Sequence record: PZ295659.1
Strand: one strand, 5' to 3'
Length of the DNA stretch: 64,000 bases
Origin: a phage
A model generated the notes under the pieces. The model saw only the letters and a list, made by a program, of their open reading frames with translations, searched no databases and was not told the DNA's origin. This document shows positions 5,856-30,801 of the stretch, in pieces; positions within the stretch are counted from its first letter, which is position 1; each line of letters starts with the position of its first letter. The translations under genes were made by a program, and so were the position numbers.

Positions 5856-7020
5856 CGAAATCTTCCATTTCGTCAAGGTCGTTTTCTATATCTGCTGCAG
5901 ACGGAGCATCAGAAGTTTTAACCGGAACTTTAGTTGTTGCTTTGCAATTAATAAGGTCGTTAACAGCGTCATCAACTTCTTTAATAGAAGAGATAGCACC
6001 TAGTTTATATTTAGTTTCAATTGCATCTCGGAAAGGTTTGTGTTTAAACAACGGTCCCCAGAATTCTACACAATCAGTAGCTTTAGCACGCCATGATTTT
6101 TCTTCACGAATCATTTCACCTGTTTCTTCGTCAAGGAATTCACGAGCATACCAACCAGCTTTAGGCTTAACTACAAAACCAATTTCAGTTGCCATTTCTA
6201 ACAAGCCACTGAATGGGTCAATACCACCATCAAAATTAACTGTGATCGGAAAAGTAGATTTCTCTTTAACCGTACGAGATTTTTCTGCTTTCAACGTGAA
6301 GTCATAACCGGTCAATTCTGTACCTTCTTTAACCTGACGTTTAGAGATAAAGAATACAGTGTTAGCAGAGTAAAGAATACCTGTACCACCACCCATAATC
6401 TCTTTAGGATACAATCCGCCAATTTCCATTGCGGTATGGTTAATTGCAACACACGGAATATCTTTAATAGTCAGATACGGGGTCACAATGCGGAACAGAG
6501 ATTTAAGTGCCTTAGCACGAGACATATCACCTACAACTTTCTCGTTCAATGCATCTTCGGTTTCTTTCTTAGATGCAGTATTACCGATTGAATCGATAAA
6601 GATAATAACTTTATCACCGCGTTCAATCGCGTCAAGCTGATTAGTCATATCAACTTTAAGTTGTTCGACAGATTGAATCGGAGTATGAACTACACGGTCT
6701 AAATCAACACCCATTGAACGAAAATAAGATTCTGAAGCACCAAATTCTGAATCATAGAACAAACAAATTGCATCTTTATATTTCTTCATATATGCTGCAA
6801 CCATGGTCAGACCAAACAACGTTTTAAAGTGTTTAGAAGGAGCAGCAAAAATAGTTAAGCCTGATTGCAACCCGGCATTCAGTGCACCACCTAATGCAAT
6901 ATTCAACATCGGAATACGAGTAGGGACTTCATCACGATTATTAAACAGCTTAGACTTAGTCAAGTCTGCAGTCATTTTAGAAGTAGAAGCTTTAATCAGA
7001 CGAGATTTTAAATCAGACAT
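5848..7020 (-). CDS. uvsX: UvsX RecA-like recombinase
   Basis: 390 aa, MSDLKSRLIKASTSK... RecA fold motifs, colinear with T4 UvsX. Confidence 0.95.
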   Translation of the reverse strand: MSDLKSRLIKASTSKMTADLTKSKLFNNRDEVPTRIPMLNIALGGALNAGLQSGLTIFAAPSKHFKTLFGLTMVAAYMKKYKDAICLFYDSEFGASESYFRSMGVDLDRVVHTPIQSVEQLKVDMTNQLDAIERGDKVIIFIDSIGNTASKKETEDALNEKVVGDMSRAKALKSLFRIVTPYLTIKDIPCVAINHTAMEIGGLYPKEIMGGGTGILYSANTVFFISKRQVKEGTELTGYDFTLKAEKSRTVKEKSTFPITVNFDGGIDPFSGLLEMATEIGFVVKPKAGWYAREFLDEETGEMIREEKSWRAKATDCVEFWGPLFKHKPFRDAIETKYKLGAISSIKEVDDAVNDLINCKATTKVPVKTSDAPSAADIENDLDEMEDFDE

Positions 7021-7120
7021 TGTATTTTTTCCATAGGCATCATTATATTTTACTCATGTTTAAAAGATAAGACGATTATATACTAAGGGTTATACAGCAT
7101 TTAAAACTTTAAACAGGCTC

Positions 7121-7669
7121 TTAACGAGCCCATTTGATAATTTCTGTAATCAAATTATTACGTTCGCTTGCATTAAATCCTATAACTTTGTTAGCACCAT
7201 CATGATTAAGTAATTGATACGTTTGGATTTCGTTATGAATTGCAAACTCTTCAAAATATGAAATGACTGTATTAAAACCGAACGAAGACAAAGTAATAAG
7301 GTCGTCTTCAAAACTTTCAGTCATTTCGTTACGTGTTAAAATAATTGTGAACACATCATGGTTTTGGCAAAGACGAACATAATCCTGTTCATAAACGTCA
7401 AGAACCGAGTCCGCATCTTGTCGAATACGTCCATAAACCCAGTTACTAATATATCCACGGTCTAACAGATAAATCTTAGTAGGGTCTAAATAATTCAACA
7501 TCGTTTCGAAACAGCCAACTTCATTTCGAGACTTAACATCGAAACGTCCATCAACTGTTCGTTTAGGGAAATCAATCTTTACATATCTTTCGCTAATTTC
7601 CATTATGTCATTAATGAAAGTTGTTTTACCAGCATTATCCGGGCCATCTACTAAAATAATTTTAGCCAT
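7121..7669 (-). CDS. P-loop nucleoside-monophosphate-kinase-like protein (Tmk-like)
   Basis: 182 aa; Walker A ILVDGPDNAGKTT and LLDRGYIS (DRY-like) motif of thymidylate-kinase-type kinases. Confidence 0.6.
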   Translation of the reverse strand: MAKIILVDGPDNAGKTTFINDIMEISERYVKIDFPKRTVDGRFDVKSRNEVGCFETMLNYLDPTKIYLLDRGYISNWVYGRIRQDADSVLDVYEQDYVRLCQNHDVFTIILTRNEMTESFEDDLITLSSFGFNTVISYFEEFAIHNEIQTYQLLNHDGANKVIGFNASERNNLITEIIKWAR

Positions 7670-7670
7670 T

Positions 7671-8570
7671 TTATTCCTCGATTACGACATCTTCATATTT
7701 AGGTATATTATACGGCGAAGAAATTAAAGCATTAAAGTAGATGAACTCACCAAGACCTGGATGGAATACTTCTTCAGGATTTTCGAAATATTGAATCTTC
7801 GGTCGTCCTTTAAGAATTTGATAGTACTCAGTTTTAGTTGGGTTAAAAATTCGAATCAGCGCTTCTTCAGGATACTTATTTCTGTCGAAGCTATTATTTG
7901 GATCGGTTATATAAAGCGGTTGGCCTAATTGAATTGCACATTCAACCACTTGTTCAAAACGATAACACGGGTCACTAATTCGAAATGGATGAAAAATACC
8001 ATCTAGATGAATAGGAGCCAAATCACCTACAAGACGCTGCATGATGGAAGGACGTATAACTTTCTGCGTTACGATAATCTTATTACCATCTGCACCTGCG
8101 TTAACCAGCACTTCTTTTTGACGTTCATTCAACACAGTAGTTTGAAGTGAACGATTAACCGACAACATGTCGGTTTTTAAGAATTCGTCAATATAAAAAC
8201 GTGGTTTATTAGGGTCCGCAGTGATATTGAAATTGAATTCCACATCAAAAGCGCCGTCATATCCAGTGATATCTGTGATTAGAAAATCACAATCATAATA
8301 AGCAATTAATGAATCAACCACAAATTCATTTTCAGACCAGAAATATTTACGAGTGTTATATGCGTTATCTTTATACCATAATGGAACAAACTTAAATTCT
8401 GGGAAAAGACGTTCACATTCTTTAATATCAGATGCATTACGTGGATATGTAATCACATCACCCGGATTAGCACGGTGCAAATGAAGTTGGAAGTTGCCAT
8501 CCTTAAGGATAGCATACTGTCCAGTTTCATAAGACCGCATACTCAAGATAGGTACGCGGAAAATAGCCAT
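7671..8570 (-). CDS. hypothetical protein; candidate DNA glycosyl(arabinosyl)transferase
   Basis: 299-aa ORF at the position T4 uses for beta-gt, no clear T4 bgt similarity; HPGLGEF region faintly GT-B-like. Confidence 0.5.
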   Translation of the reverse strand: MAIFRVPILSMRSYETGQYAILKDGNFQLHLHRANPGDVITYPRNASDIKECERLFPEFKFVPLWYKDNAYNTRKYFWSENEFVVDSLIAYYDCDFLITDITGYDGAFDVEFNFNITADPNKPRFYIDEFLKTDMLSVNRSLQTTVLNERQKEVLVNAGADGNKIIVTQKVIRPSIMQRLVGDLAPIHLDGIFHPFRISDPCYRFEQVVECAIQLGQPLYITDPNNSFDRNKYPEEALIRIFNPTKTEYYQILKGRPKIQYFENPEEVFHPGLGEFIYFNALISSPYNIPKYEDVVIEE

Positions 8571-9286
8571 TAGTCAAGGAATCCTTTAACATAATCAAAA
8601 TCACGTTCAAACACATGGGCACTTACCATGGTATGAGTATAATCACCAACTTCTACACCACATTCGTTAGCGATATAATGAAGTAATTTTCCTTGGAGAT
8701 AAAAATCCAACTGCATAACAACAGCACAGTTCTGAGAACGCATATGACAGTGGGTATAAAGCTTACCATCACGAATATAATAAGTCACTGAGTCAGTACA
8801 TGGATATTCAAGTGTTTCGTCCGAATCAAGCAAAGCCTGATCTGAACTTTCTAGAATTTGGAACACAACTCTTCGGGAGTTAGGCTTCTCTTTAAGTTCT
8901 TTTAGAAGAGCTGGTAATTGAGCCGCAATGCGAGGACCGTAGAAAGTGTTGAAGTTTGCAGGCAAAGCGTCTGATTTAGGTTTAGAAATAAATTTAGCGA
9001 CATTAGGATATGCCTTAAATGCTTCTTCTGCATCAGTACCACCAGAAATCATAAACTTCCAGAAGTCTTCGGCATATTCATAAGAGATGCGATTAATACG
9101 TGGATCGGTCATTTTGAATGATGAAGGGGTATCAACAACTACTGTCATAGACCCAATTTCATTACAACGTCCAATACGAGAATCAGTAACGAACTGTGGA
9201 TTTTCTAAAATTTCACGATTAACAGCTTTAAATGCGGATTGAAAATCTGCGGCTTTAATATATTTCATTGTGTTATGTTTTCCCAT
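8570..9286 (-). CDS. 42: deoxypyrimidine (dCMP) hydroxymethylase, thymidylate-synthase family
   Basis: NSRRVV, catalytic YPCTDSVTYYIRDGKL, MRSQNCAVVMQLDFY, ECGVEVGDYTHTMVSAHVFERDF align with TS/gp42 core; Asp rather than TS Asn in the pyrimidine-recognition position. Confidence 0.75.
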   Translation of the reverse strand: MGKHNTMKYIKAADFQSAFKAVNREILENPQFVTDSRIGRCNEIGSMTVVVDTPSSFKMTDPRINRISYEYAEDFWKFMISGGTDAEEAFKAYPNVAKFISKPKSDALPANFNTFYGPRIAAQLPALLKELKEKPNSRRVVFQILESSDQALLDSDETLEYPCTDSVTYYIRDGKLYTHCHMRSQNCAVVMQLDFYLQGKLLHYIANECGVEVGDYTHTMVSAHVFERDFDYVKGFLD

Positions 9287-9302
9287 GTTTACCTCAATAC
9301 AG

Positions 9303-9330
9303 TTATTATATACTCAATTCATAAAGCTTA
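9303..9330 (-). promoter_or_regulatory. possible MotA-dependent middle promoter upstream of gene 42
   Basis: Minus strand AAGCTTTA (MotA-box-like) followed ~12 bp later by TATAAT. Confidence 0.35.
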
Positions 9331-9406
9331 TTTGAATTTCTTAGCAATGTTGATATAACGTAAAGCTTCAGCATCGATACTTCCAAGAACACTATGAAGA
9401 AATGCA

Positions 9407-9568
9407 TCAGCGTAGTATTCTAGTTGAACAGGTTTCTTTAATCACTTTAGCCGCTTTAGTTTCAAACAGGCCCATAAGGGCCTTTTTAAGAATTTGTTCG
9501 TTGCTGTTAATTTTCGTAGTCAAAATCTCTTCATTAAGTTGGTGGTTAAAAGTTTTTCTAGAAATCAT
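9407..9568 (-). CDS. micro-ORF (53 aa) translationally coupled to upstream gene
   Basis: ATG overlaps stop of 386-aa gene (ATGA), GAGGT SD; MISRKTFNHQLNEEILTTKINSNEQILKKALMGLFETKAAKVIKETCSTRILR. Confidence 0.35.
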   Translation of the reverse strand: MISRKTFNHQLNEEILTTKINSNEQILKKALMGLFETKAAKVIKETCSTRILR

Positions 9569-10725
9569 TCCGGGTACCTCAAAGCGTCGTCAGAGTTAGT
9601 TATATCAATAATAGATATAGAGTTTTCTGCTAACCCATTTTTAGATAACTGACGTTTATAATATCTTTCACAATATGTACACGTCGTCCCGCAGATTTCA
9701 TTAGCACAATCGAAATCTGGATGTCTGAACCACCTTTTTTCTAAAAAGCCATCTAACAAAGAGGTTTCAATATTTACCGTATGTGAAAACTCGGTCTCAT
9801 TTTCAAGAGTGAAAATAGTCTCTAAAGGCTTCCACAATTCCAACAAATTACCTTCAAATTTTTCAGAAGCATAAGCTTCAAGAACTTTCAAAATGTAGTC
9901 TGTGCTACCTGTACGTCCTGAAACTTTGAATTGAGTGATACCAATATCATTATAAAGTTTCAAATCTTGAGGACGAACAAAACGAGTTCTCAACCAGTTA
10001 AATGGGTCTGTATCACGAGCTTTAATACAGTGTTGCATTGGATAGCCATTTAAGGATTTGGCATCATCTACTGTAACGTCGGTGCTATGGAAAATATAGC
10101 AAGAGTCACGATAGCTACAATGTGTTGTATACCCTTTACCAGCATTAGAACAGAACTCATTTACAAGAACTTCAAATATTATATTGTTCTTATTGCAAAA
10201 CTCTGCTGCACGCTTCAGGAAAGAAACTGAACGGTTCTTATGAATTCCACAGCAGACCTTTTTGATATTATATTGGTCATGCAAGTATTTGATTTGAGTT
10301 ACAGCATCGACATGTAGAATTGTTGAAACTTCAATCTCAATGTCTTTATTAACTTCACGAACAATTTCCATAACAACAGGGTTAGCGATAGTAATACGCC
10401 ATACGCCTATTGACCAAAGATACTGAACATAATCCTGAATAGCTTTCTTCTTCCACTCAACTAGTTCTCTTTTTGAACCAGGATTTATCGTGTTGAGTGT
10501 ATAGTTAAAGCAAATACCTAATTCGTTACAACGTTTAACATAATCTTCTAACATCTTTTTGTCAACGTCAGGAAGCCTAAAATCAGGTCTGGCTGCTACA
10601 AAAGCCATTTCTCTTGTAGAGCCGTATACTTCATTTATCAAGCTATTAGGATAAGTTTTATTGAGCTCTACGATTTTATCAAGAAGAGCTAAATCAAAAT
10701 TCGTTCCGATTTTAAAAGTATTCAT
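9565..10725 (-). CDS. Cys-rich enzyme of unknown function (U32-like layout, C-terminal CX4CX3CX2C cluster)
   Basis: 386 aa; N-terminal region resembles peptidase-U32-type TIM-barrel proteins; C-terminal CANEICGTTCTYC; several central Cys. Confidence 0.5.
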   Translation of the reverse strand: MNTFKIGTNFDLALLDKIVELNKTYPNSLINEVYGSTREMAFVAARPDFRLPDVDKKMLEDYVKRCNELGICFNYTLNTINPGSKRELVEWKKKAIQDYVQYLWSIGVWRITIANPVVMEIVREVNKDIEIEVSTILHVDAVTQIKYLHDQYNIKKVCCGIHKNRSVSFLKRAAEFCNKNNIIFEVLVNEFCSNAGKGYTTHCSYRDSCYIFHSTDVTVDDAKSLNGYPMQHCIKARDTDPFNWLRTRFVRPQDLKLYNDIGITQFKVSGRTGSTDYILKVLEAYASEKFEGNLLELWKPLETIFTLENETEFSHTVNIETSLLDGFLEKRWFRHPDFDCANEICGTTCTYCERYYKRQLSKNGLAENSISIIDITNSDDALRYPE

Positions 10726-10779
10726 TTTTACATCTCGCGTTAATTGATGCGATGGTTTTTGCAGGTCTTACTTAAATTA

Positions 10780-11181
10780 TTATAGATTCGGTTTATATGA
10801 TTTAAATGTTTCGAATTCGCCTTTATTCATAAGAGCTTTGAATTCGTCAGGACGCATAGCTTTGTCGTCGATAATCCAATCATATACTGGTTTATGTGTT
10901 AGCAAATTATGGTACTTCAAGCCAATGTTTGCCAAGTTCTGAATCAGACTTGGGAGAATGTCAATTGCTATACGACCAGGACCTACTGACTTCATACCGC
11001 GAGCAGTGTAAAGCGTTATTGTATGCCCTGCATCATACAGGGCATTAATGGCAGACACCATTTCGACGTCTGGTTTGAAGTTCACGTAATCACGATTGTT
11101 ATTCCACTCGGTTATACAATCATCGACATCAAAACAAAGATTAAGCATGTTTTCTACACGGTGCATTAGATTCGTTCCCAT
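10780..11181 (-). CDS. HAD-superfamily phosphatase-like protein
   Basis: 133 aa; motif I FDVDDCIT, motif II LYTAR, motif IV IIDDK. Confidence 0.6.
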   Translation of the reverse strand: MGTNLMHRVENMLNLCFDVDDCITEWNNNRDYVNFKPDVEMVSAINALYDAGHTITLYTARGMKSVGPGRIAIDILPSLIQNLANIGLKYHNLLTHKPVYDWIIDDKAMRPDEFKALMNKGEFETFKSYKPNL

Positions 11182-12851
11182 TGATGAGTGATATCGCCAC
11201 CGATTGGACGATAGGAAACACCAGTTTCTTTATCAGTTAGTACCCATTTACCAGGATTTTTTGTAATCAGAGTAGCCGTTACAGGTTCTGCTACGTCATA
11301 ACTAATAGAGCCGTCTTGAAGTACACGGCCCATGTTACGTAATTGCTTAGTCAGAAGTTCCATACCTTTATAATATGCGGCTACCGCTTTAAGTGGATTA
11401 TTCTTGAAATAACCACCTAATGCAATCCAGATAATTGCTACAGCCAAATGATGATACTCGTTAAACGAACTCATCTTTCCATATTTGTAAACTAATGGAT
11501 TGATGTTAATAGTCACATTACAAGTTGTTTCATCAATAGTAAACTGACCCCAGGTCGGATTAGCGTTGAATTCATCATAACCTGAAACAGCGTAAAGCAC
11601 TTTAGCTTCATCATACAATTTTGGCCCGTAAATCTTGGTTTCACCAAAATATCCACGAGGGTCGATAAACTTGACTTCACCATTATCAGTAATCATAGTA
11701 TTACTGAAGTTCGGGTCACCATGAATAACAGAGTACTGTCCCTGAGAACGGTTATGATAACGAATAAGGTGTTCTAAAGCTTGTTTCAACATTGGCTTCA
11801 GACGTCCAATCTTAGTGTAGTTCACATGTGTGATTTTACCAAATGAATCAATCAATGGTTGAATACTTTCACAACGATCAATAACTTTCGTATAGAATTC
11901 TTTAGTGAAATCACGACGAACAGTTTCAGGACTTACAAAATAAGTGTCTGTGCTGAATTTCAGTGCATCTAAAATTGCATCAACAATTTGTGGACGAGCA
12001 AGACTCGATTTGGATTTAATATATTCAAATGCCGGCTTACCTTTAATGCGTTCCATTTCAAAGTTATTTTCATTAACAGAAACTAACTGAGGAACTGAAT
12101 CTGATTTCACTTTAAGATACCATGAAATCTCATCTTTCTGAAGAGCTCGACCCTGTTCGGTTAATGCGAATTTAGTTACAGTTTCTTCACCAATTTCAAC
12201 TGCATTAAAACTACGATTAAGTTCACGAACTTCATGAGCTTTTTCAAGTTTAGGCATATCACCTAAATCAATTAGATTCATAAGCTCTGATTTATTGAAT
12301 GCGCTGCCGTAAAGGAATTCTACGAAATCACGCCCTTTGCAGTATTCATGAATTTCCTCATCAGTAGAACCCATATAGAATTCCCAGTCTTTGAACTGAT
12401 AAATTCCTACAACATTACCACCTGTTGAACCTACGTTAGTGATATTTTCACCGTCGAAATTATATCGACATTCGTCACCCTTAACATAGATTGCGTTAAC
12501 ATTCCAAGACCATGAACCAAAATCAGGAATAATATCGCACCAGTTAACAATTACATTATGGCTGTCTAAATCTTTGTGTAATTTAGCAAGAGCATAAGCA
12601 GAACCATACGCTTCATCAACTGTACGAATAGTCACATTGAACCCTTCTTGCTCACAATAAGCTCGAACAGTTTCAGCAAATTTTGAATGAACTACTACAA
12701 TAATTTCATCTGCGCCAAGGTCAGAATAAATTGTATACAAATTGCTCAGAATAGTGTCTTGTTTATAGTTAACAAGCACCTTAGGAATATGATGCGTTAT
12801 TGGATACAAACGAGTTGCCAGTCCAGCACCAAGAATAACAGCTTTTTTCAT
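11166..12851 (-). CDS. bifunctional sugar-1-phosphate nucleotidyltransferase / APH-family anomeric sugar kinase
   Basis: 561 aa; N-terminal VILGAGLATRLYPIT (G-x-G-T-R-L NTase motif); C-terminal VIHGDPNFSN...KFIDPRG (Brenner motif and DxG of choline/aminoglycoside kinase fold). Confidence 0.8.
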   Translation of the reverse strand: MKKAVILGAGLATRLYPITHHIPKVLVNYKQDTILSNLYTIYSDLGADEIIVVVHSKFAETVRAYCEQEGFNVTIRTVDEAYGSAYALAKLHKDLDSHNVIVNWCDIIPDFGSWSWNVNAIYVKGDECRYNFDGENITNVGSTGGNVVGIYQFKDWEFYMGSTDEEIHEYCKGRDFVEFLYGSAFNKSELMNLIDLGDMPKLEKAHEVRELNRSFNAVEIGEETVTKFALTEQGRALQKDEISWYLKVKSDSVPQLVSVNENNFEMERIKGKPAFEYIKSKSSLARPQIVDAILDALKFSTDTYFVSPETVRRDFTKEFYTKVIDRCESIQPLIDSFGKITHVNYTKIGRLKPMLKQALEHLIRYHNRSQGQYSVIHGDPNFSNTMITDNGEVKFIDPRGYFGETKIYGPKLYDEAKVLYAVSGYDEFNANPTWGQFTIDETTCNVTININPLVYKYGKMSSFNEYHHLAVAIIWIALGGYFKNNPLKAVAAYYKGMELLTKQLRNMGRVLQDGSISYDVAEPVTATLITKNPGKWVLTDKETGVSYRPIGGDITHQWERI

Positions 12852-12892
12852 GTTGTGGTCCTCATTGGTAAGTAGGAGTATTGTACACTATT

Positions 12893-13036
12893 CTAGTTAA
12901 AGCATTCATACTTTGCTTGTAGTCCAATCATAATCCATCCGATTACAAGTGTTGGAATCATTACTGGAGCCGTTAAGCTCCAGTAGATAGTCATGACAAG
13001 CATCAATAGTAAAAGTCCTATTGTTATTGCTTTCAT
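12893..13036 (-). CDS. micro-ORF encoding 47-aa hydrophobic peptide
   Basis: ATG overlaps stop of SIS gene (ATGA); MKAITIGLLLLMLVMTIYWSLTAPVMIPTLVIGWIMIGLQAKYECFN; followed by GAGGA SD of NTase/kinase gene. Confidence 0.4.
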   Translation of the reverse strand: MKAITIGLLLLMLVMTIYWSLTAPVMIPTLVIGWIMIGLQAKYECFN

Positions 13037-13668
13037 TGTTCGCCTCGTAACATGGCACCTAGTGCACCGCCAGGGTGGAACTTAAGGAAGTCATTAGAGG
13101 TAAATCCACGTTCAGACGAAAGGTTGATAGCAAACGTATCGATAAGCGCTAACAACAATGTAGTGGACATGGTCGGAGCCAGAGAATTCTCATCAACCTC
13201 TACTGCGATGCCTGTACAGAACGTATAATCAAAAAGAGCTTCATATTCTTGTGGAATGTCTGGGTTACAATGCAACAGAATCTGTTTGACGTTCGGACGA
13301 ATCATTTTAAGATGCTTAGCCACGCCTATCATTTCTTCAGTTTTACCAGAACGACTAATATGAATCAACACATCATTAGGCGCAATGAATCCTGCATCAC
13401 CGTGAGAATAATGCCCGGTGTTCAAGTACATACTAGGGATACCGAGTGAAGCAAATGTTTCAGAAGCTTTAGTTGCAATATTAGCATTCTTACCAACACC
13501 TGTAATAATTACTCGGCTTTCATAATTACTAAGCCCTGGGCGTCGAAGAGTTTCTAGAATAGCATTATAACGAGCAGGGTTTTGACTAATTACTTTGGCC
13601 ATAGCGGCCAAAGAAGAAGCTTGTTTTATGATTGCGTCAATAGCGATAGTAATAGGAGTAGTTTTCAT
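13033..13668 (-). CDS. D-arabinose-5-phosphate isomerase (KdsD/GutQ-like, SIS domain only)
   Basis: 211 aa; IITGVGKNANIATKASETFASLGIPSMYLNTGHYSHGDAG parallels KdsD GMGKSGHIG.K.AATFASTGTPSFF.HPGEASHGDLG. Confidence 0.8.
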   Translation of the reverse strand: MKTTPITIAIDAIIKQASSLAAMAKVISQNPARYNAILETLRRPGLSNYESRVIITGVGKNANIATKASETFASLGIPSMYLNTGHYSHGDAGFIAPNDVLIHISRSGKTEEMIGVAKHLKMIRPNVKQILLHCNPDIPQEYEALFDYTFCTGIAVEVDENSLAPTMSTTLLLALIDTFAINLSSERGFTSNDFLKFHPGGALGAMLRGEQ

Positions 13669-13708
13669 ATTTCTCTCATTTAATTAGTTTACCGTCCATG
13701 ACATTATA

Positions 13709-16420
13709 TCAAAAATCGAACATATCGAAAAGAGATGCTTTCTTCTCGTAATCGAGTTTCGCTGCTGATGTGAATCCTTCAAGTGGTTTAATAAATGTCT
13801 TCTCAAGGAGAACAGTGTAGTCCATCCAATGAAGTACGTCGTCTTTAATTAAATCTGTGATTTCAGTACCAGAAGGCCATGCGATACATTTATCACCGAA
13901 TGGGTTTCCTTCACGTAAAGGCAGAACATATACTTTTTCACCTTCTACAACTTGCGGTGCATCGATATTACCTTTGATGGCCCGGTTATATGTCAGAATT
14001 CCACGAATATGGAACGGACATTTAGGACCAGGGAATCCACCTACGTCATATTTAGCGATGTTATTCGCAGAAGATACCGACGCGATGCTAATATAATTCA
14101 ATTGACGGAATTCTTTTTCAAACTCTTTAAAATATTCTTGTAATGATTCTTCACCTTCTTGAAGCATACGACGAATACATTCTTTAAGAGCTTTCTGTAC
14201 GGCTTTAGGAGTCGAAGATTTCTGCGTCTCTAGACCCATGATTTTGAGTTTAGGCTCAGCGTAACGAGTACCTTCCATATCCCACACGTTTAATGCATAA
14301 CGTTTCTTACCAGTCCAGAATCCACCAATACCTTTAGAACCAAGTGGAGGCCCAGCGATAGCTTCTCGGTCCATGAACATTAAGTGTTGTTTATTGTTCA
14401 TGTATTCACACATTTCACGGAAACCTCTATCAATAGCTGGTTCCATACGTTCACGTGCAAACTTATCTAAGAAGTCTACCCAGTGGTTGGTATCACGGAA
14501 TTTAGATTCACCAACCTTATCGATAATTTTATCAGCAGATACGTAAATAGAGTCTGTATCACCATAAAGAACGAAAGCTTCACCTTCTGTACCACAAACT
14601 TCGTTCAGATATTCATTAACTTTACGTTCAATCCACTGTAAAGCCATTTGCCCAAATGTTGTGATTGCAGTAGCATTACGCAAATCATAATAACGGAACC
14701 AAACGTTGCCAAGTGCACCATAAAGTGAGTTGATAAGCAATTTACGGTTAATTTGAGCAGTCATACCTGCAACTTCGGTACGTTGAGCTCTAAACAACAT
14801 TTCATTAAGAGATTTAGCAGACAACTTTTTAATCTTTTCTTTAATCTCATCACTGAAGTCGAAACGATAATCAACATCTAATGGTTCGTCAACAGAAAGA
14901 TTAGGATTATGCAATGCCTCTTTAATTATTTCACCGTTACGTTGAGCTGCAAGCATGTAACCTTTATGTTCTTTACGTTGATTAAAGACCTTAGTGATTT
15001 CAGTTGGAACTACACCATCACGGTCTTTATAATACATCATGCCGTTAGGAGAGCAACTGTACACATCTGAAGGACGTTCAGCAACAGCGTTAATATAATC
15101 ATGCAATGGAGCTACTTTAAACGTTCCTGCTATTGTTTCCGGGCTAATATTCACTTGGCGAATAATACTTGGATACAGAGATGTAAGGTCGAAACTCATT
15201 ACATATTTGTATCGATTTGGAATAGGTTCCTTAACAAAAGCACCAGGATAAGGTTGAACCGGGTGAGAACGACCTTGTGGAATCACCTTGTTCTGCTCTT
15301 TAAGGCTATTAAAAATAATAGCATCCCATGTTTTAATTGGGCTAAACACAGATTGAATCTGTATCTTAGCATAATAACCCATGTCCAAACTCAAGTTGAT
15401 GAACTGACGCTTAGCATCAATTTGCAATACACGATACACGTCGATAATGTTATAAGAAATATATCGTTGGTGATTGCTTTCACGAAGCTTAGAAATAGGG
15501 CCGTCATATTTCAGTTTACCAACGTTCAATTCAAATTCTGAAATGTAATCCAGAGAATATGACGGCTGATTGGTAAAAGAGAATTTTTTGTAAAGGTCAA
15601 TGTAATCAAGAACAGAGATACCGAACAATGTAATGATTTCACGAGAACCATACATGTTTTCGATAACTTTAACACGAGTTTTACGATGTGGTGATAAACG
15701 TTTCGCAGTAGATTCGCCAAAAATATTCTTGATTCGGTTATACACATATGGAATATCAAATGACTCAACGTTCCATCCAGTCAAAATGACAGGAGTTTTC
15801 TGTTGCCAGAAGTTGAGATATTCCATCAACAATTCTTTTTCGTTATCGAACGGCATATAAATGATTTTATCGATAATTTCGGATGGAACTTCATCACCGC
15901 CTTGTTCTTGAAGCTTGGCCGCAATTTCGATAGACCATTCTTCTACATTACCATATGGAGAATTCAATAGATCAAATACGTAGAACCTGTCGTCAATTGA
16001 GTCATAATGGGTGATAGCATCAATCGGATGTTTTGCTTGTGACGGCTCAGGGAACCCATCCGGGGATGTTACTTCGATGTCGAAGTTAGCCACACGAATT
16101 TTTGTATGGTCGTATTTGATTTCATAGTTATAAGTGTCAGACAAATACGCCAATTTGAAATCGTCCATGCCAAGTGCTTCAAGTCCGATATCTTCCATGC
16201 GTTTAATCCATTGGGAGGCATCACGCATATTGGCGAACAACTTACGAGTACACGGCTTACCATAGATATCAAAATATTTCGTGGCCTGACTTTCAGGACA
16301 ATGTGCAAACAATGATGGTTTATACTCTACTTCACGAGTACGTTCACGGCCGTTAGAATCGATGTAACGTTCAAAAATTGAATCACCAATCTGTTCAACC
16401 GTTAAGTAAAATTCTTTCAT
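13709..16420 (-). CDS. 43: DNA polymerase gp43 (family B)
   Basis: 903 aa; exo motifs FDIE, YNIIDV; pol motifs SLYPSII, YGDTDS; matches RB69 gp43 as I recall it. Confidence 0.97.
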   Translation of the reverse strand: MKEFYLTVEQIGDSIFERYIDSNGRERTREVEYKPSLFAHCPESQATKYFDIYGKPCTRKLFANMRDASQWIKRMEDIGLEALGMDDFKLAYLSDTYNYEIKYDHTKIRVANFDIEVTSPDGFPEPSQAKHPIDAITHYDSIDDRFYVFDLLNSPYGNVEEWSIEIAAKLQEQGGDEVPSEIIDKIIYMPFDNEKELLMEYLNFWQQKTPVILTGWNVESFDIPYVYNRIKNIFGESTAKRLSPHRKTRVKVIENMYGSREIITLFGISVLDYIDLYKKFSFTNQPSYSLDYISEFELNVGKLKYDGPISKLRESNHQRYISYNIIDVYRVLQIDAKRQFINLSLDMGYYAKIQIQSVFSPIKTWDAIIFNSLKEQNKVIPQGRSHPVQPYPGAFVKEPIPNRYKYVMSFDLTSLYPSIIRQVNISPETIAGTFKVAPLHDYINAVAERPSDVYSCSPNGMMYYKDRDGVVPTEITKVFNQRKEHKGYMLAAQRNGEIIKEALHNPNLSVDEPLDVDYRFDFSDEIKEKIKKLSAKSLNEMLFRAQRTEVAGMTAQINRKLLINSLYGALGNVWFRYYDLRNATAITTFGQMALQWIERKVNEYLNEVCGTEGEAFVLYGDTDSIYVSADKIIDKVGESKFRDTNHWVDFLDKFARERMEPAIDRGFREMCEYMNNKQHLMFMDREAIAGPPLGSKGIGGFWTGKKRYALNVWDMEGTRYAEPKLKIMGLETQKSSTPKAVQKALKECIRRMLQEGEESLQEYFKEFEKEFRQLNYISIASVSSANNIAKYDVGGFPGPKCPFHIRGILTYNRAIKGNIDAPQVVEGEKVYVLPLREGNPFGDKCIAWPSGTEITDLIKDDVLHWMDYTVLLEKTFIKPLEGFTSAAKLDYEKKASLFDMFDF

Positions 16421-28046: not shown

Positions 28047-28517
28047 TTAATCATGTTTCCACACCCCATCGGTATTTGACCAAAGTCGCTGATTATCTGA
28101 TCCTCGCCACAGTTTTTTGGTCGGAAGATTTTTCTCATACTTCCCATCAATAATAACATCAACATATTTAAGCATTTCTAGTTGTTTAATATCTTCAAAC
28201 TTATATCCTGTCCACAACCAAATGCTTTTATTGGGATAAAGATTTTTTACTGTTTGAACAATGCAATGAACAACATCTCGGTTATCAGGATAGAGAGGGT
28301 CTCCTCCAGTTATAGTTAATCCTTCTATATAATCATTATTCAAACATTCAATTAATTGTTCTAGCGTTTCACCAGTGAATGGAACGCCATTTCTAGCATT
28401 CCATGTTGATTTATTATAACACCCTTCGCATTTATGCAAACAACCGGTAACGAAAAGAACGACCCTGCAACCAGGGCCATTCACAAAATCACAGGGATAA
28501 AATCTATCATAATTCAT
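28047..28517 (-). CDS. nrdG: anaerobic ribonucleotide reductase activating protein NrdG (radical SAM)
   Basis: 156 aa; CX3CX2C-like GCRVVLFVTGCLHKCEGC; syntenic with nrdD. Confidence 0.9.
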   Translation of the reverse strand: MNYDRFYPCDFVNGPGCRVVLFVTGCLHKCEGCYNKSTWNARNGVPFTGETLEQLIECLNNDYIEGLTITGGDPLYPDNRDVVHCIVQTVKNLYPNKSIWLWTGYKFEDIKQLEMLKYVDVIIDGKYEKNLPTKKLWRGSDNQRLWSNTDGVWKHD

Positions 28518-30331
28518 TGGTGTTTAACCCTATGCATGATTTCTTTATTTTTGCCGAGATTAAATCCACGTTCGTTCGGATTTCCAAGATAACCGCATGT
28601 TCTTCTTATGGTGTTCATCTTTTTAGGATCAGTTTCTCCACAAATAGAACAAACAAATCCGTTTTCAGTAGGAGTCATTTCATGGGTACTTCCACACGTA
28701 AAACATTTATCTACTGGCATATTAACACCAAAATAATCTAAATGTTGCGCAGCATAATCCCATACAGCCTCAAGACCTTTTAGGTTATTTTTCATATCAG
28801 GAAGTTCAACATAAGAAATGTGACCGCCAGTCGCAATGAAATGATATGGGGCTTCGCGAGAAATCTTTTCAAACGGAGTAATATTTTCTTCTACTGAAAC
28901 ATGGAAACTATTAGTGTACCATCCTTTATCAGTAACATCTTTTACACTTCCATATTTTTCAGTATCGAGTTTACAGAAGCGATAGCACAGGTTTTCAGCA
29001 GGAGTAGAATACAAGCTAAAAGCAAAACCGGTTCTTTCAGTCCACTGCTTAAGACGAGCATTCATTTTAGTTAAAATTTCTTGTCCAATATCACGACCGA
29101 CAAGAATATTCAATTCGTGAATACCAATGTATCCTAGGGACACTGAACTTCTACCGTTTTTAAATAACTCAATTATGTCGTCGTCAGGTTTAAGACGAAC
29201 CCCGAATGCACCTTCTTGGTAAAGAATAGGAGCAACAGTCGCTTTAACTCCTTTTAAGGAACTAATTCTACACATCAAAGCTTCAAAACATAAATCCATT
29301 CGTTCATTGAACAATTCGGTAAATTTCTGTTCATTGAACTGTGTTCCAATATAAGAATCTAACGCAATACGAGGAAGATTCAGTGTTACAACACCAAGAT
29401 TATTACGTCCATCAAGAATTTCATTACCAGTCGAATCTTTCCATACACTCAAGAAACTACGACAACCCATTGGAGAAACAGGAATAGATGAACCGGTGAT
29501 AGCTTTATTATTCTTAACTGAAATAATATCAGGATACATTCTTTTGCTTGCACACTCTAGAGCAAGCTGCTTAATATCATAGTTCGGGTCGTCTTTATAA
29601 AGATTGACACCCTCTTCAACGAACATAACAAGTTTAGGGAAAATAGGAGTTATTCCATCACGACCAAGGCCTTTAATACGGTTTTTAAGAATTGCCTTCT
29701 GAATAATTCGTTCAGTCCAGTCAGTTCCAGTACCAAATGTAATTGTTACAAAAGGCGTTTGCCCGTTTGAACTAAAGAGAGTATTTACTTCGTATTCATA
29801 CGCTTGGAATGCATCGTATACGTCTTTTTCTGTTTTAGATTGGGCATAATTCAACGCATCAGCGATTTGCCATTTTTCTGCATCCTCAATATGTTTTGCA
29901 TAGGTGCGTTTAACATAAGGAGAAAGTACTTTATCTACATTCGCAAAAGTCGTTCCGCCATATTGATGGGAAGCAACCTGTGCAGTAATTTGTGCCATAA
30001 TTGCAGTAGCAACGCCGATTGATTTAGGAGTTTCAATCTGTGCATTACCTAGCTTAAATCCGTTTTCAAGCATTCCTTTTAAATCTACTAAACAGCAATT
30101 AGTAAATGGAAGAGCAGGGGAATAATCAATATCATGGAAATGGATAATTCCGCTTTCATGTGCTTTCATAATAAAAGACGGGACCATATTTTTGGCAATG
30201 TGCTTAGACACAATACCAGCCATAAGGTCCCGTTGAGTTGGAAAAACACGAGAATCTTTATTAGCATTCTCGTTCAAAAGATCTTTATTAGTTTTATGAA
30301 TTAATCCTTCAATTTCTTTTTCAATTTTCAT
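28514..30331 (-). CDS. nrdD: anaerobic ribonucleoside-triphosphate reductase NrdD
   Basis: 605 aa; C-terminal glycyl-radical motif RRTCGYLGNP; colinear with T4 NrdD. Confidence 0.95.
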   Translation of the reverse strand: MKIEKEIEGLIHKTNKDLLNENANKDSRVFPTQRDLMAGIVSKHIAKNMVPSFIMKAHESGIIHFHDIDYSPALPFTNCCLVDLKGMLENGFKLGNAQIETPKSIGVATAIMAQITAQVASHQYGGTTFANVDKVLSPYVKRTYAKHIEDAEKWQIADALNYAQSKTEKDVYDAFQAYEYEVNTLFSSNGQTPFVTITFGTGTDWTERIIQKAILKNRIKGLGRDGITPIFPKLVMFVEEGVNLYKDDPNYDIKQLALECASKRMYPDIISVKNNKAITGSSIPVSPMGCRSFLSVWKDSTGNEILDGRNNLGVVTLNLPRIALDSYIGTQFNEQKFTELFNERMDLCFEALMCRISSLKGVKATVAPILYQEGAFGVRLKPDDDIIELFKNGRSSVSLGYIGIHELNILVGRDIGQEILTKMNARLKQWTERTGFAFSLYSTPAENLCYRFCKLDTEKYGSVKDVTDKGWYTNSFHVSVEENITPFEKISREAPYHFIATGGHISYVELPDMKNNLKGLEAVWDYAAQHLDYFGVNMPVDKCFTCGSTHEMTPTENGFVCSICGETDPKKMNTIRRTCGYLGNPNERGFNLGKNKEIMHRVKHQ

Positions 30332-30801
30332 TTTAAACTCTTTCTAAGCTGCTTTTTGAATGAAGCTATTAATTGTGTTTTGGTATCAGATTCATTATAT
30401 TCAAATCCTCTTTGAAGCATCTCAGCCATCATTTCCTCTTTACCTAGTCTTGAGAACTCTTTAGTTTTGTCTGGAACAAAATTAGGATGGATATTATTAT
30501 CAGAATAATCTTGTTTCAAATAAGCAAGAAGAGCTTCAAGCCATTCGAGGTAGTCGACATCACGTCCTTTAAGACCGGAACGGTTGAACTTATGCTTCAT
30601 TTGACCTTCTGCTGCGTTGCACAGATTACAGAGTAACCCACGAACTCTACCTGCTTTTGGCCCGTTTAATTCGTGGTCGTGGTCAAGATGGTTACCTTGA
30701 ACATCAGGGTCTAATTCACGGTGGCAAATAGGACACTTACCATTCTGTGCATCATAAAATTTTTGTTTTTCTTCTTTATATTTTGTGCCTGATAATAACA
30801 T
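30328..30801 (-). CDS. 49: endonuclease VII (Holliday junction resolvase) gp49
   Basis: 157 aa; CPICHRELDPDVQGNHLDHDHELNGPKAGRVRGLLCNLCN as in T4 endo VII. Confidence 0.95.
   Translation of the reverse strand: MLLSGTKYKEEKQKFYDAQNGKCPICHRELDPDVQGNHLDHDHELNGPKAGRVRGLLCNLCNAAEGQMKHKFNRSGLKGRDVDYLEWLEALLAYLKQDYSDNNIHPNFVPDKTKEFSRLGKEEMMAEMLQRGFEYNESDTKTQLIASFKKQLRKSLK

Follow-up and report, generated by a model that had tools for sequence, protein, structure and literature searches.

The 64,000-nucleotide stretch of phage sequence record PZ295659.1 analysed here (the window) derives from an RB69-like Mosigvirus and carries, on the minus strand at 9565-10725, a 386-residue open reading frame (ORF) with an ATG start, whose product is the ortholog of RB69 ORF050c (gp50; 99.2% identity) and is called gp50 below. 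The first-pass annotation, made from the letters alone, had noted a Cys-rich enzyme of this length, and the reading frame is confirmed on the minus strand; the plus strand there is full of stops. From its sequence and by analogy with characterized members of the U32 family, we propose with modest confidence that gp50 is an O2-independent, prephenate-dependent C5 hydroxylase that makes 5-hydroxy-deoxycytidine monophosphate (5-hydroxy-dCMP).

RB69 DNA contains arabinosylated 5-hydroxycytosine, not hydroxymethylcytosine (Lee et al., Nucleic Acids Research 2026, PMC13326640). The 5-hydroxyl group is made at the level of dCMP by gp48, a thymidylate synthase (TS) homolog which binds flavin and whose oxygen atom comes from 18O2, and the uridine diphosphate (UDP)-arabinose branch is accounted for by gp55, gp52:53, and gp51 (PMC13326640). 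He et al. 2026, as described in PMC13326640, agrees on gp48. In contrast, gp50 appears only in Table 1 of PMC13326640, where it is labelled "sugar or heterocycle reductase" with no discussion and no experiment. The published pathway has a gap, as its hydroxylase depends on O2 yet the hosts are gut Enterobacterales and the phages encode an anaerobic ribonucleotide reductase; gp50 is the obvious candidate to fill it. Because the phage dCTPase removes deoxycytidine triphosphate (dCTP; Table 1, PMC13326640), there would be no usable cytosine nucleotide under anoxia without an O2-independent hydroxylase. In the searchable literature we found no statement tying a phage U32 protein or chorismate mutase to 5-hydroxycytosine, prephenate, or anaerobiosis, and the family of the U32 gene goes unmentioned in the Thanatos and Durham-collection papers.

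gp50 is a U32-type barrel protein of a distinct clade

The gene and its recognizable domain are placed as follows.

9565-10725, minus strand: predicted U32-family Fe-S protein (RB69 ORF050c/gp50 ortholog), 386 residues, proposed O2-independent, prephenate-dependent pyrimidine C5 hydroxylase
9868-10446, minus strand: Peptidase_U32 Pfam domain, triosephosphate isomerase (TIM)-barrel core, residues 94-286; coordinates verified by translation

Residues 94-286 match Peptidase_U32 (PF01136) at 42.4 bits against a gathering cut-off of 22.4, and the ortholog in Enterobacter phage Entb_45 scores 43.6 bits. An AlphaFold2 model built from a 109-sequence alignment is confident (predicted local distance difference test score 93.7, predicted template modelling score 0.92) and has a U32-type TIM-barrel fold, the layout which the first-pass annotation had associated with the N-terminal two-thirds of the protein. 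A sequence search of the PDB with gp50 gave no match at E <= 1; Mk0906 (PDB 5D88) was found by fold search only. The 5D88 match supports the barrel but is uninformative on activity, because the function of Mk0906 is unknown. The Pfam scan and the fold provide no glycosyltransferase GT-A or GT-B fold and no Rossmann domain for binding nicotinamide dinucleotides (NAD(P)) or nucleoside diphosphate (NDP)-sugars.

Within the superfamily, gp50 falls outside the RlhA, TrhP, UbiU, and UbiV subfamilies: their cut-offs are not reached, the sole NCBIfam match is a partial one to UbiU (19.4 bits against a cut-off of 440), and Pfam detects neither a DUF3656 nor a U32_C domain. A hidden Markov model search of 1.84 billion proteins with the clade profile recovered 493 representative clusters at E <= 1e-30 and 1,717 at E <= 1e-3. 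The phage clade appears to be separate, since the canonical U32 subfamilies were not reached at E <= 1e-3. Judged by these searches, gp50 is a superfamily member belonging to a distinct, mostly phage-borne clade and not an ortholog of RlhA, TrhP, UbiU, or UbiV. When the clade profile was compared with E. coli proteins by hhalign, RlhA scored best (85% over 207 columns, including the Cys motif), followed by TrhP (19%) and UbiU (6%); the templates were single E. coli sequences and hence shallow, so that this ranking is a hint and not a phylogeny. It is suggestive only of RlhA as the closest E. coli relative of the phage clade.

Two cysteine sites are conserved across the clade

E. coli UbiU, UbiV, RlhA, and TrhP were aligned with the phage clade, and conservation was assessed over 82 clade members with identities down to ~25%. 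Two groups of cysteines emerged.

10027-10152, minus strand: barrel metal site C192-X10-C203-X5-C209-X23-C233, proposed [4Fe-4S] site (alignment, conservation, and translation check)
9670-9708, minus strand: C-terminal CX4CX3CX2C (C340, C345, C349, C352; residues 340-352, CANEICGTTCTYC), proposed second Cys-ligated cluster or Zn site (translation and conservation)

C192, C203, and C233 are conserved in 82 of 82 members, while position 209 is occupied by Cys in 56 members and by His in 25; we consider C209 a probable metal ligand because a Cys/His exchange is typical of such residues. At the C-terminus, C340, C345, and C352 are likewise conserved in 82 of 82 members and C349 in 81 (99%). C158 and C177 are not conserved across the clade. 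This clade-wide conservation therefore suggests two sites with four ligands each: CX10CX5(C/H)X23C within the barrel and, at the C-terminus, CX4CX3CX2C.

C203 and C209 of gp50 share alignment columns with C169 and C176 of both UbiU and RlhA, with C170 and C177 of TrhP, and with C180 of UbiV. The UbiU and UbiV residues in these columns are biochemically assigned [4Fe-4S] ligands (PMC6747719). In RlhA, mutagenesis showed E161, C169, and C176 to be essential for 5-hydroxycytidine formation (PMC5727448), and E185, C203, and C209 of gp50 occupy the same columns. In addition, gp50 "GYPMQHC233" resembles UbiU "GYPTLC232", in which C232 is the fourth UbiU ligand. The canonical motif is CX6CX15CX3/4C (CX6CX16CX38C in UbiU); the first two ligands of gp50 are placed alike, but with CX5C spacing, and the remaining barrel ligand C192 lies upstream, not downstream as in the canonical motif. 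The first-pass annotation had offered an Fe-S dependent step as one of several options, and the alignment with validated ligands of UbiU, which correspond to essential residues of RlhA, together with the two four-ligand sites, argues for that option. R46, R165, K267, and R271 are invariant or nearly so in the clade and could accommodate anionic ligands, for instance the phosphate of a nucleotide and the carboxylates of prephenate.

C345, C349, and C352 had also been described as a radical S-adenosylmethionine (SAM)-like triad. We rejected this reading: a fourth invariant cysteine, C340, would complete a four-ligand site instead of a three-Cys SAM-binding cluster; the motif follows the barrel rather than sitting on its first strand; and there is no match to Radical_SAM (PF04055) at E <= 0.1, while NrdG, the real radical-SAM protein of the window, does match PF04055. 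By analogy, the essential C-terminal Cys residues of RlhA (PMC5727448) offer a closer comparison for the C-terminal motif than radical SAM does.

gp50 accompanies the 5-hydroxy-dCMP synthase homolog

Homologs of the TS-type 5-hydroxy-dCMP synthase were found in 374 phage records, including 57 from Acinetobacter and 20 from Rhizobium phages. The U32 gene was found in 222 phage records, all at >=80% identity to the window protein, and the distribution is nested, with TS homologs (374) outnumbering U32 (222) and U32 outnumbering chorismate mutase (CM; at least 54). Among sequenced phages, the U32 gene is confined to those with a gp48-type gene and was not found in hydroxymethylcytosine phages such as T4; it lies within two genes of the TS homolog in all nine of the U32-carrying loci inspected. 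The listed hosts of U32-carrying phages are Escherichia, Shigella, Klebsiella, Serratia, Proteus, Yersinia, Enterobacter, Erwinia, Edwardsiella, Providencia, Pectobacterium, Kosakonia, and Shewanella, all of which are facultative anaerobes. By arithmetic, at most one of the Acinetobacter and Rhizobium TS-homolog records could carry a U32 gene. Inspection of the clusters in Acinetobacter phages Maestro and Acj9 and in Pseudomonas phage PspYZU05 showed sugar genes together with a TS homolog, but neither U32 nor CM; DLP3 likewise lacks both (PMC13326640). A strict host rule, in which every phage of a facultative anaerobe would carry U32, was also considered and is ruled out by the JS98-type phages of E. 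coli.

In all five pairwise comparisons made with the window, identity is higher for the U32 protein than for the TS homolog, a hydroxylase shown by experiment to be essential; these comparisons include Shewanella phage Thanatos-2 (82.1 vs 71.7% identity), Klebsiella phage R3_1 (85.5 vs 78.1%), and Proteus phages (82.3 vs 76.2%). Judging from these identities, the U32 gene is under strong purifying selection.

A chorismate mutase gene adjoins U32 in sister genera

The U32 stop codon of Entb_45 is overlapped by a gene that bears a chorismate mutase annotation; its product scores 40.9 bits with Pfam CM_2 (cut-off 27). Corresponding CM_2 scores in other phages are as follows.

Pectobacterium phage PM2: 38.3 bits
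Yersinia phage TG1: 36.0 bits
Proteus phage Pm5461: 46.8 bits
Serratia phage CHI14: 44.6 bits
Shewanella phage Thanatos-2: 32.8 bits

A Pfam-significant AroQ-type CM is thus found just downstream of U32 in phages of six genera. It is the very next gene in Entb_45, CHI14, and Thanatos-2, and one further small ORF intervenes in PM2, TG1, and Pm5461. In Thanatos the cluster is rearranged (TS homolog, glycosyltransferase, kinase, U32, CM, uvsX) with the U32-CM pair kept together. Aligned with the CM domains of E. coli PheA and TyrA, the phage CMs retain R11, R28, K39, E52, S84, and Q88, which we take to be the catalytic set of the E. coli CM (EcCM) structure. By tblastn the CM is present in at least 54 phage records, all T4-like and including Morganella phage Rgz1; its neighbors, wherever their names are informative, are always a "peptidase" and the TS homolog. 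In no host genus are there more records with CM than with U32. The pairing fits prephenate use by gp50, because CM makes prephenate, the donor of U32 hydroxylases.

The corresponding slot in Mosigviruses holds a small ORF, RB69 ORF049c, of 79 residues (L001:3829-4068, in the RB69 locus); the window homolog is cut to 53 residues by a +1 A. This ORF was considered as a divergent CM and rejected, having no Pfam or NCBIfam match and an hhalign probability of 0.1% against the phage CM profile. It has been disrupted independently three times within five codons, by the +1 A here, by CAA>TAA in ST0 and PNJ-9, and by GAA>TAA in F2. Either its C-terminal half is decaying, or a product of ~47-53 residues is selected.

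Distant clade members lie among deoxynucleotide and replication genes

In uncultured phages, clade members at 50-58% identity adjoin deoxynucleotide and replication genes, with no sugar-activation genes nearby. Contigs of 466 kb and 60 kb have the order thymidylate kinase, DNA polymerase III (Pol III) alpha with a uracil-DNA glycosylase (UDG) domain, dCMP deaminase, and then U32. In a phage with holin and amidase genes the order is dUTPase, thymidylate kinase, an ORF of unknown function, U32, Pol III alpha, and RecA; another contig has a radical SAM/SPASM gene, an unknown ORF, U32, and Pol III alpha; and a further one has U32, NT5C, a PnuC-like transporter, a deoxynucleoside kinase, a radical SAM gene, a second U32-like gene, and a nucleoside deoxyribosyltransferase. 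A clade member is also found on one small phage contig that carries a portal gene. These neighborhoods link the clade with replication and the metabolism of deoxypyrimidine nucleotides rather than with glycosylation. The first-pass annotation had considered a second transferase or a sugar-tailoring enzyme, and both proposals fare poorly given homologs in genomes free of sugar genes and a conserved partner in sister phages that is a chorismate mutase. Overall, its U32 fold and Fe-S step stand, and its radical SAM, transferase, and sugar-tailoring readings are not borne out; the O2-independent pyrimidine C5 hydroxylases which it mentioned without commitment are where the evidence now points.

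Several features recur in these loci. The dCMP deaminase gene lies directly upstream of the U32-clade gene in L003 (7447-8004) and L006 (7504-7929), with a UDG domain that is either part of Pol III alpha or next to it. These dCMP-deaminase neighbors are hints that some clade members hydroxylate deoxyuridine monophosphate (dUMP), perhaps toward 5-hydroxyuracil DNA, rather than dCMP. An ORF of 248-326 residues abuts or overlaps the U32-clade gene in five loci (L003:9175-9939, L006:9080-9826, L004:7185-7982, L021:6085-7008, and L022:6016-6996); it has no significant Pfam match and may encode a conserved partner protein. The metagenomic U32-clade genes repeatedly have radical SAM/SPASM genes in their vicinity (L003:1-249, L004:12160-14360, and L022:4972-6000), and in L004 the radical SAM gene is followed by a divergent second U32-like gene (21.7 bits, just below the cut-off) and a nucleoside 2-deoxyribosyltransferase-like gene. 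These radical SAM/SPASM neighbors may belong to further nucleotide modification pathways.

Proposed mechanism and alternative explanations

The mechanism is drawn by analogy with RlhA, TrhP, and UbiU-UbiV. RlhA-dependent 5-hydroxycytidine formation requires prephenate and Fe-S biogenesis, and prephenate is the proven oxygen donor of UbiU-UbiV. For gp50, we infer Fe-S content, prephenate use, hydroxylase activity, substrate, and a role under anoxia as parts of one scheme, in which a single-subunit U32 Fe-S enzyme would install the C5 hydroxyl of 5-hydroxycytosine without O2. The TIM-barrel active site would bind a pyrimidine deoxynucleotide, most likely dCMP, the same substrate as that of the TS homolog. 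The [4Fe-4S] cluster (C192, C203, C209, C233) and the C-terminal cluster (C340, C345, C349, C352) would take two electrons from the pyrimidine ring, and prephenate would decarboxylate and aromatize to phenylpyruvate, giving its hydroxyl to C5. The 5-hydroxy-dCMP would then enter the known route of deoxynucleoside monophosphate kinase, polymerase, and arabinosylation on DNA. In this way gp50 would serve as the anaerobic counterpart of the flavin- and O2-dependent gp48 homolog when oxygen is scarce. The neighboring phage CM would supply prephenate in most sister genera, and the CM-less Mosigvirus and Marfa-like phages would draw on host PheA and TyrA.

A number of points weigh against this proposal. 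The third and fourth barrel ligands, C192 and C233, lie outside the canonical CX6CX15CX3/4C register. The window has no CM, as is the case for all Mosigviruses, its slot being filled by the unrelated, truncated small ORF, and in the Marfa-like Klebsiella phages, also without CM, the slot is empty. JS98-type Dhakaviruses of E. coli have the arabinosyl-5-hydroxycytosine cluster without U32 or CM, so that some phages of a facultative anaerobe, at least, can do without U32. By a rough estimate, one prephenate would be consumed per cytosine, or ~1e7 per burst, far above any known U32 reaction; the phage-borne CM in most lineages may answer this heavy demand. The sole published label for gp50 is "sugar or heterocycle reductase" (PMC13326640), and hydroxylation in vitro has yet to be demonstrated for any U32 protein (PMC10990095).

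The same prephenate-dependent C5 chemistry could also act on another substrate, either cytosine in DNA after replication, or deoxycytidine diphosphate, dCTP, or dUMP. The characterized nucleic acid hydroxylases of the U32 family act on RNA polymers, and several metagenomic homologs directly follow dCMP deaminase, a supplier of dUMP; however, gp50 is a bare barrel with a Cys knuckle and without the DUF3656 of RlhA or the C-terminal domain of TrhP, the neighborhoods are rich in mononucleotide enzymes, and the phage's own pathway hydroxylates at the dCMP level, so that we regard another substrate as unlikely. More doubtful still is an RNA hydroxylase resembling TrhP or RlhA, which would form 5-hydroxyuridine at position 34 of tRNA (ho5U34) or 5-hydroxycytidine (ho5C) in phage or host tRNA or rRNA and thereby tune translation. 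T4-like phages encode tRNAs, and gp50 is homologous to both proteins with RlhA its best E. coli match. This role is very unlikely given the absence of an RNA-binding accessory domain, the restriction of U32 to genomes with a 5-hydroxy-dCMP synthase homolog to the exclusion of T4-type hydroxymethylcytosine phages, and the position of distant homologs beside deoxynucleotide and replication genes.

A role for gp50 in the arabinose branch, as a sugar or heterocycle reductase or in some other kind of sugar tailoring, is distinctly improbable. The gene does have the sugar-activation genes on one side and the TS homolog on the other, and many sugar enzymes are TIM barrels, but the label in Table 1 of PMC13326640 follows from the 5D88 fold match alone. 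The proposed UDP-arabinofuranose route is complete without gp50; DLP3, Maestro, JS98, and PspYZU05, which lack U32, make or encode this pathway; and clade members occur without nearby sugar genes, with no nucleotide-sugar or NAD(P) domain detected. Finally, GenBank records name such proteins "peptidase", "collagenase-like protease", or "putative protease", and some U32 proteins have been reported as collagenolytic. A true peptidase or collagenase is nevertheless extremely improbable here: no catalytic mechanism is known for U32 proteolysis, the characterized members are Fe-S hydroxylation factors, the invariant residues are metal ligands and Arg/Lys with no protease triad, and the genomic context is nucleotide metabolism.

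Gene neighborhood

The region 7000-13800 of the window is 98.6% identical to Escherichia phage PHB12 and 97.8% identical to RB69. The U32 gene lies inside a co-directional block bounded by DNA polymerase gp43 and UvsX, with the minus-strand order SIS isomerase, nucleotidyltransferase/kinase, HAD phosphatase, U32, small ORF, TS homolog, glycosyltransferase, and thymidylate-kinase-like protein. The TS homolog is one small ORF away from U32 and is 99.2% identical to RB69 ORF048c.

13033-13668, minus strand: SIS-domain arabinose-5-phosphate isomerase (RB69 gp55; Pfam SIS, phrog_5670; PMC13326640)
11166-12851, minus strand: bifunctional nucleotidyltransferase/kinase, UDP-arabinose maker (RB69 gp52:53, AfhE-like; Pfam NTP_transferase and weak kinase-family matches; PMC13326640)
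10780-11181, minus strand: HAD-type phosphatase, arabinose-phosphate processing (RB69 gp51/AfhF-like; phrog_1238; PMC13326640)
9407-9568, minus strand: small ORF overlapping the U32 stop (RB69 ORF049c homolog), 53 residues, shortened by +1 A
8570-9286, minus strand: TS homolog, flavin- and O2-dependent 5-hydroxy-dCMP synthase (RB69 gp48 ortholog; Pfam Thymidylat_synt; function from PMC13326640)
7671-8570, minus strand: DNA arabinosyltransferase candidate, single ORF here (RB69 gp46:47; phrog_3891; PMC13326640)
7121-7669, minus strand: thymidylate-kinase-like nucleotide kinase (RB69 gp45; phrog_761; PMC13326640 Table 1)
28514-30331, minus strand: anaerobic ribonucleotide reductase NrdD, 605 residues (Pfam NRDD 569.6 bits, Gly_radical)
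28047-28517, minus strand: NrdG activase, radical-SAM, 156 residues (Fer4_12, Radical_SAM)

Since the window encodes NrdD and NrdG, the phage is equipped for dNTP synthesis in the absence of O2, and anoxic replication appears to be within its repertoire. An endonuclease VII gene (30328-30801) comes after NrdD/NrdG (28047-30331). ORF046c/047c and ORF052c/053c, which are split in the RB69 GenBank record, are single intact ORFs here (299 and 561 residues, respectively), in agreement with the conclusion of Lee et al. (PMC13326640) that the RB69 splits are sequencing errors. In the Winklervirus CHI14 of Serratia, a segB-like homing endonuclease (L017:1852-2490) is inserted between the HAD phosphatase and U32, which marks this junction as a site of gene flux. 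A promoter and terminator scan of the window was uninformative, with counts at the level of shuffled sequence.

Implications

If the proposal holds, these phages would have a complete O2-independent route to hypermodified DNA, which could be made in the oxygen-free gut where gp48 cannot work, and the high conservation of a "peptidase" gene in the cluster would be explained. What would be new is a viral, single-chain U32 hydroxylase with two metal sites, a probable deoxynucleotide substrate, and a CM partner in sister lineages. It is possible, though we say so tentatively, that gp50 is the first viral U32 hydroxylase and the first to act on a free soluble deoxynucleotide (dCMP), with both Fe-S clusters in one polypeptide and its own CM in most lineages. 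Because they act on ribosome precursors, tRNAs, or polyprenyl lipids, U32 hydroxylases have so far escaped in vitro reconstitution (PMC10990095); a one-subunit enzyme with a commercial soluble substrate would make prephenate-dependent hydroxylation directly testable in vitro. The phage CM would become an auxiliary metabolic gene with a defined purpose, and phage therapy or defence studies in aerated culture may misjudge the modification state in the gut. More broadly, the clade of ~490 clusters from uncultured phages, often beside dCMP deaminase, would represent widespread, unrecognized 5-hydroxypyrimidine DNA modifications in anoxic habitats, and the U32 clade would serve as a genomic marker for such new modifications in phages of anaerobes.

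Comparison with known systems

RlhA (YdcP), the E. coli synthase of 5-hydroxycytidine at C2501 of 23S rRNA, is a U32 barrel like gp50, and its reaction, C5 hydroxylation of the cytosine ring, is of the type proposed for the phage protein. RlhA has an essential C-terminal Cys group, and gp50 has an invariant one. The two differ in that RlhA is a 653-residue protein with DUF3656 which acts on a ribosome assembly intermediate, whereas gp50 has 386 residues, no accessory domain, and a deoxynucleotide as its predicted substrate. Overall identity is ~20%, and the CX6C of RlhA is replaced in gp50 by CX5C with two ligands taken from other positions (C192 and C233). Mk0906 (PDB 5D88), the only solved U32 structure, aligns with gp50 at 14% identity (247 residues; template modelling score normalized to the query, 0.47) and is without the region of the phage C-terminal Cys motif.

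The TS-homolog synthases RB69 gp48, DLP3 gp80, and that of HY126 have the product (5-hydroxy-dCMP) and pathway proposed for gp50. The activity of gp48, with a thymidylate synthase fold, flavin, and oxygen from O2, is experimentally established, whereas that of gp50 is predicted from its family and context. UbiU and UbiV are U32 proteins with one [4Fe-4S] cluster each, and C169, C176, and C232 of UbiU resemble C203, C209, and C233 of gp50, with GYP(T/M) shared. UbiU-UbiV is a heterodimer whose substrate is a polyprenyl phenol and which requires UbiT, a lipid carrier, while the single phage chain appears to hold two metal sites. As an anaerobic backup to UbiI, UbiH, and UbiF, hydroxylases that need flavin and O2, UbiU-UbiV occupies the position proposed for gp50 relative to gp48. 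TrhP (YegQ), the prephenate-dependent factor for ho5U34 in tRNA, combines a U32 barrel with pyrimidine C5 hydroxylation, although unlike gp50 it has a C-terminal U32_C domain and a tRNA substrate. TrhP was reportedly paired with the O2-dependent TrhO by Sakai et al. 2019, and this aerobic/anaerobic pair mirrors the one proposed here for gp48 and gp50.

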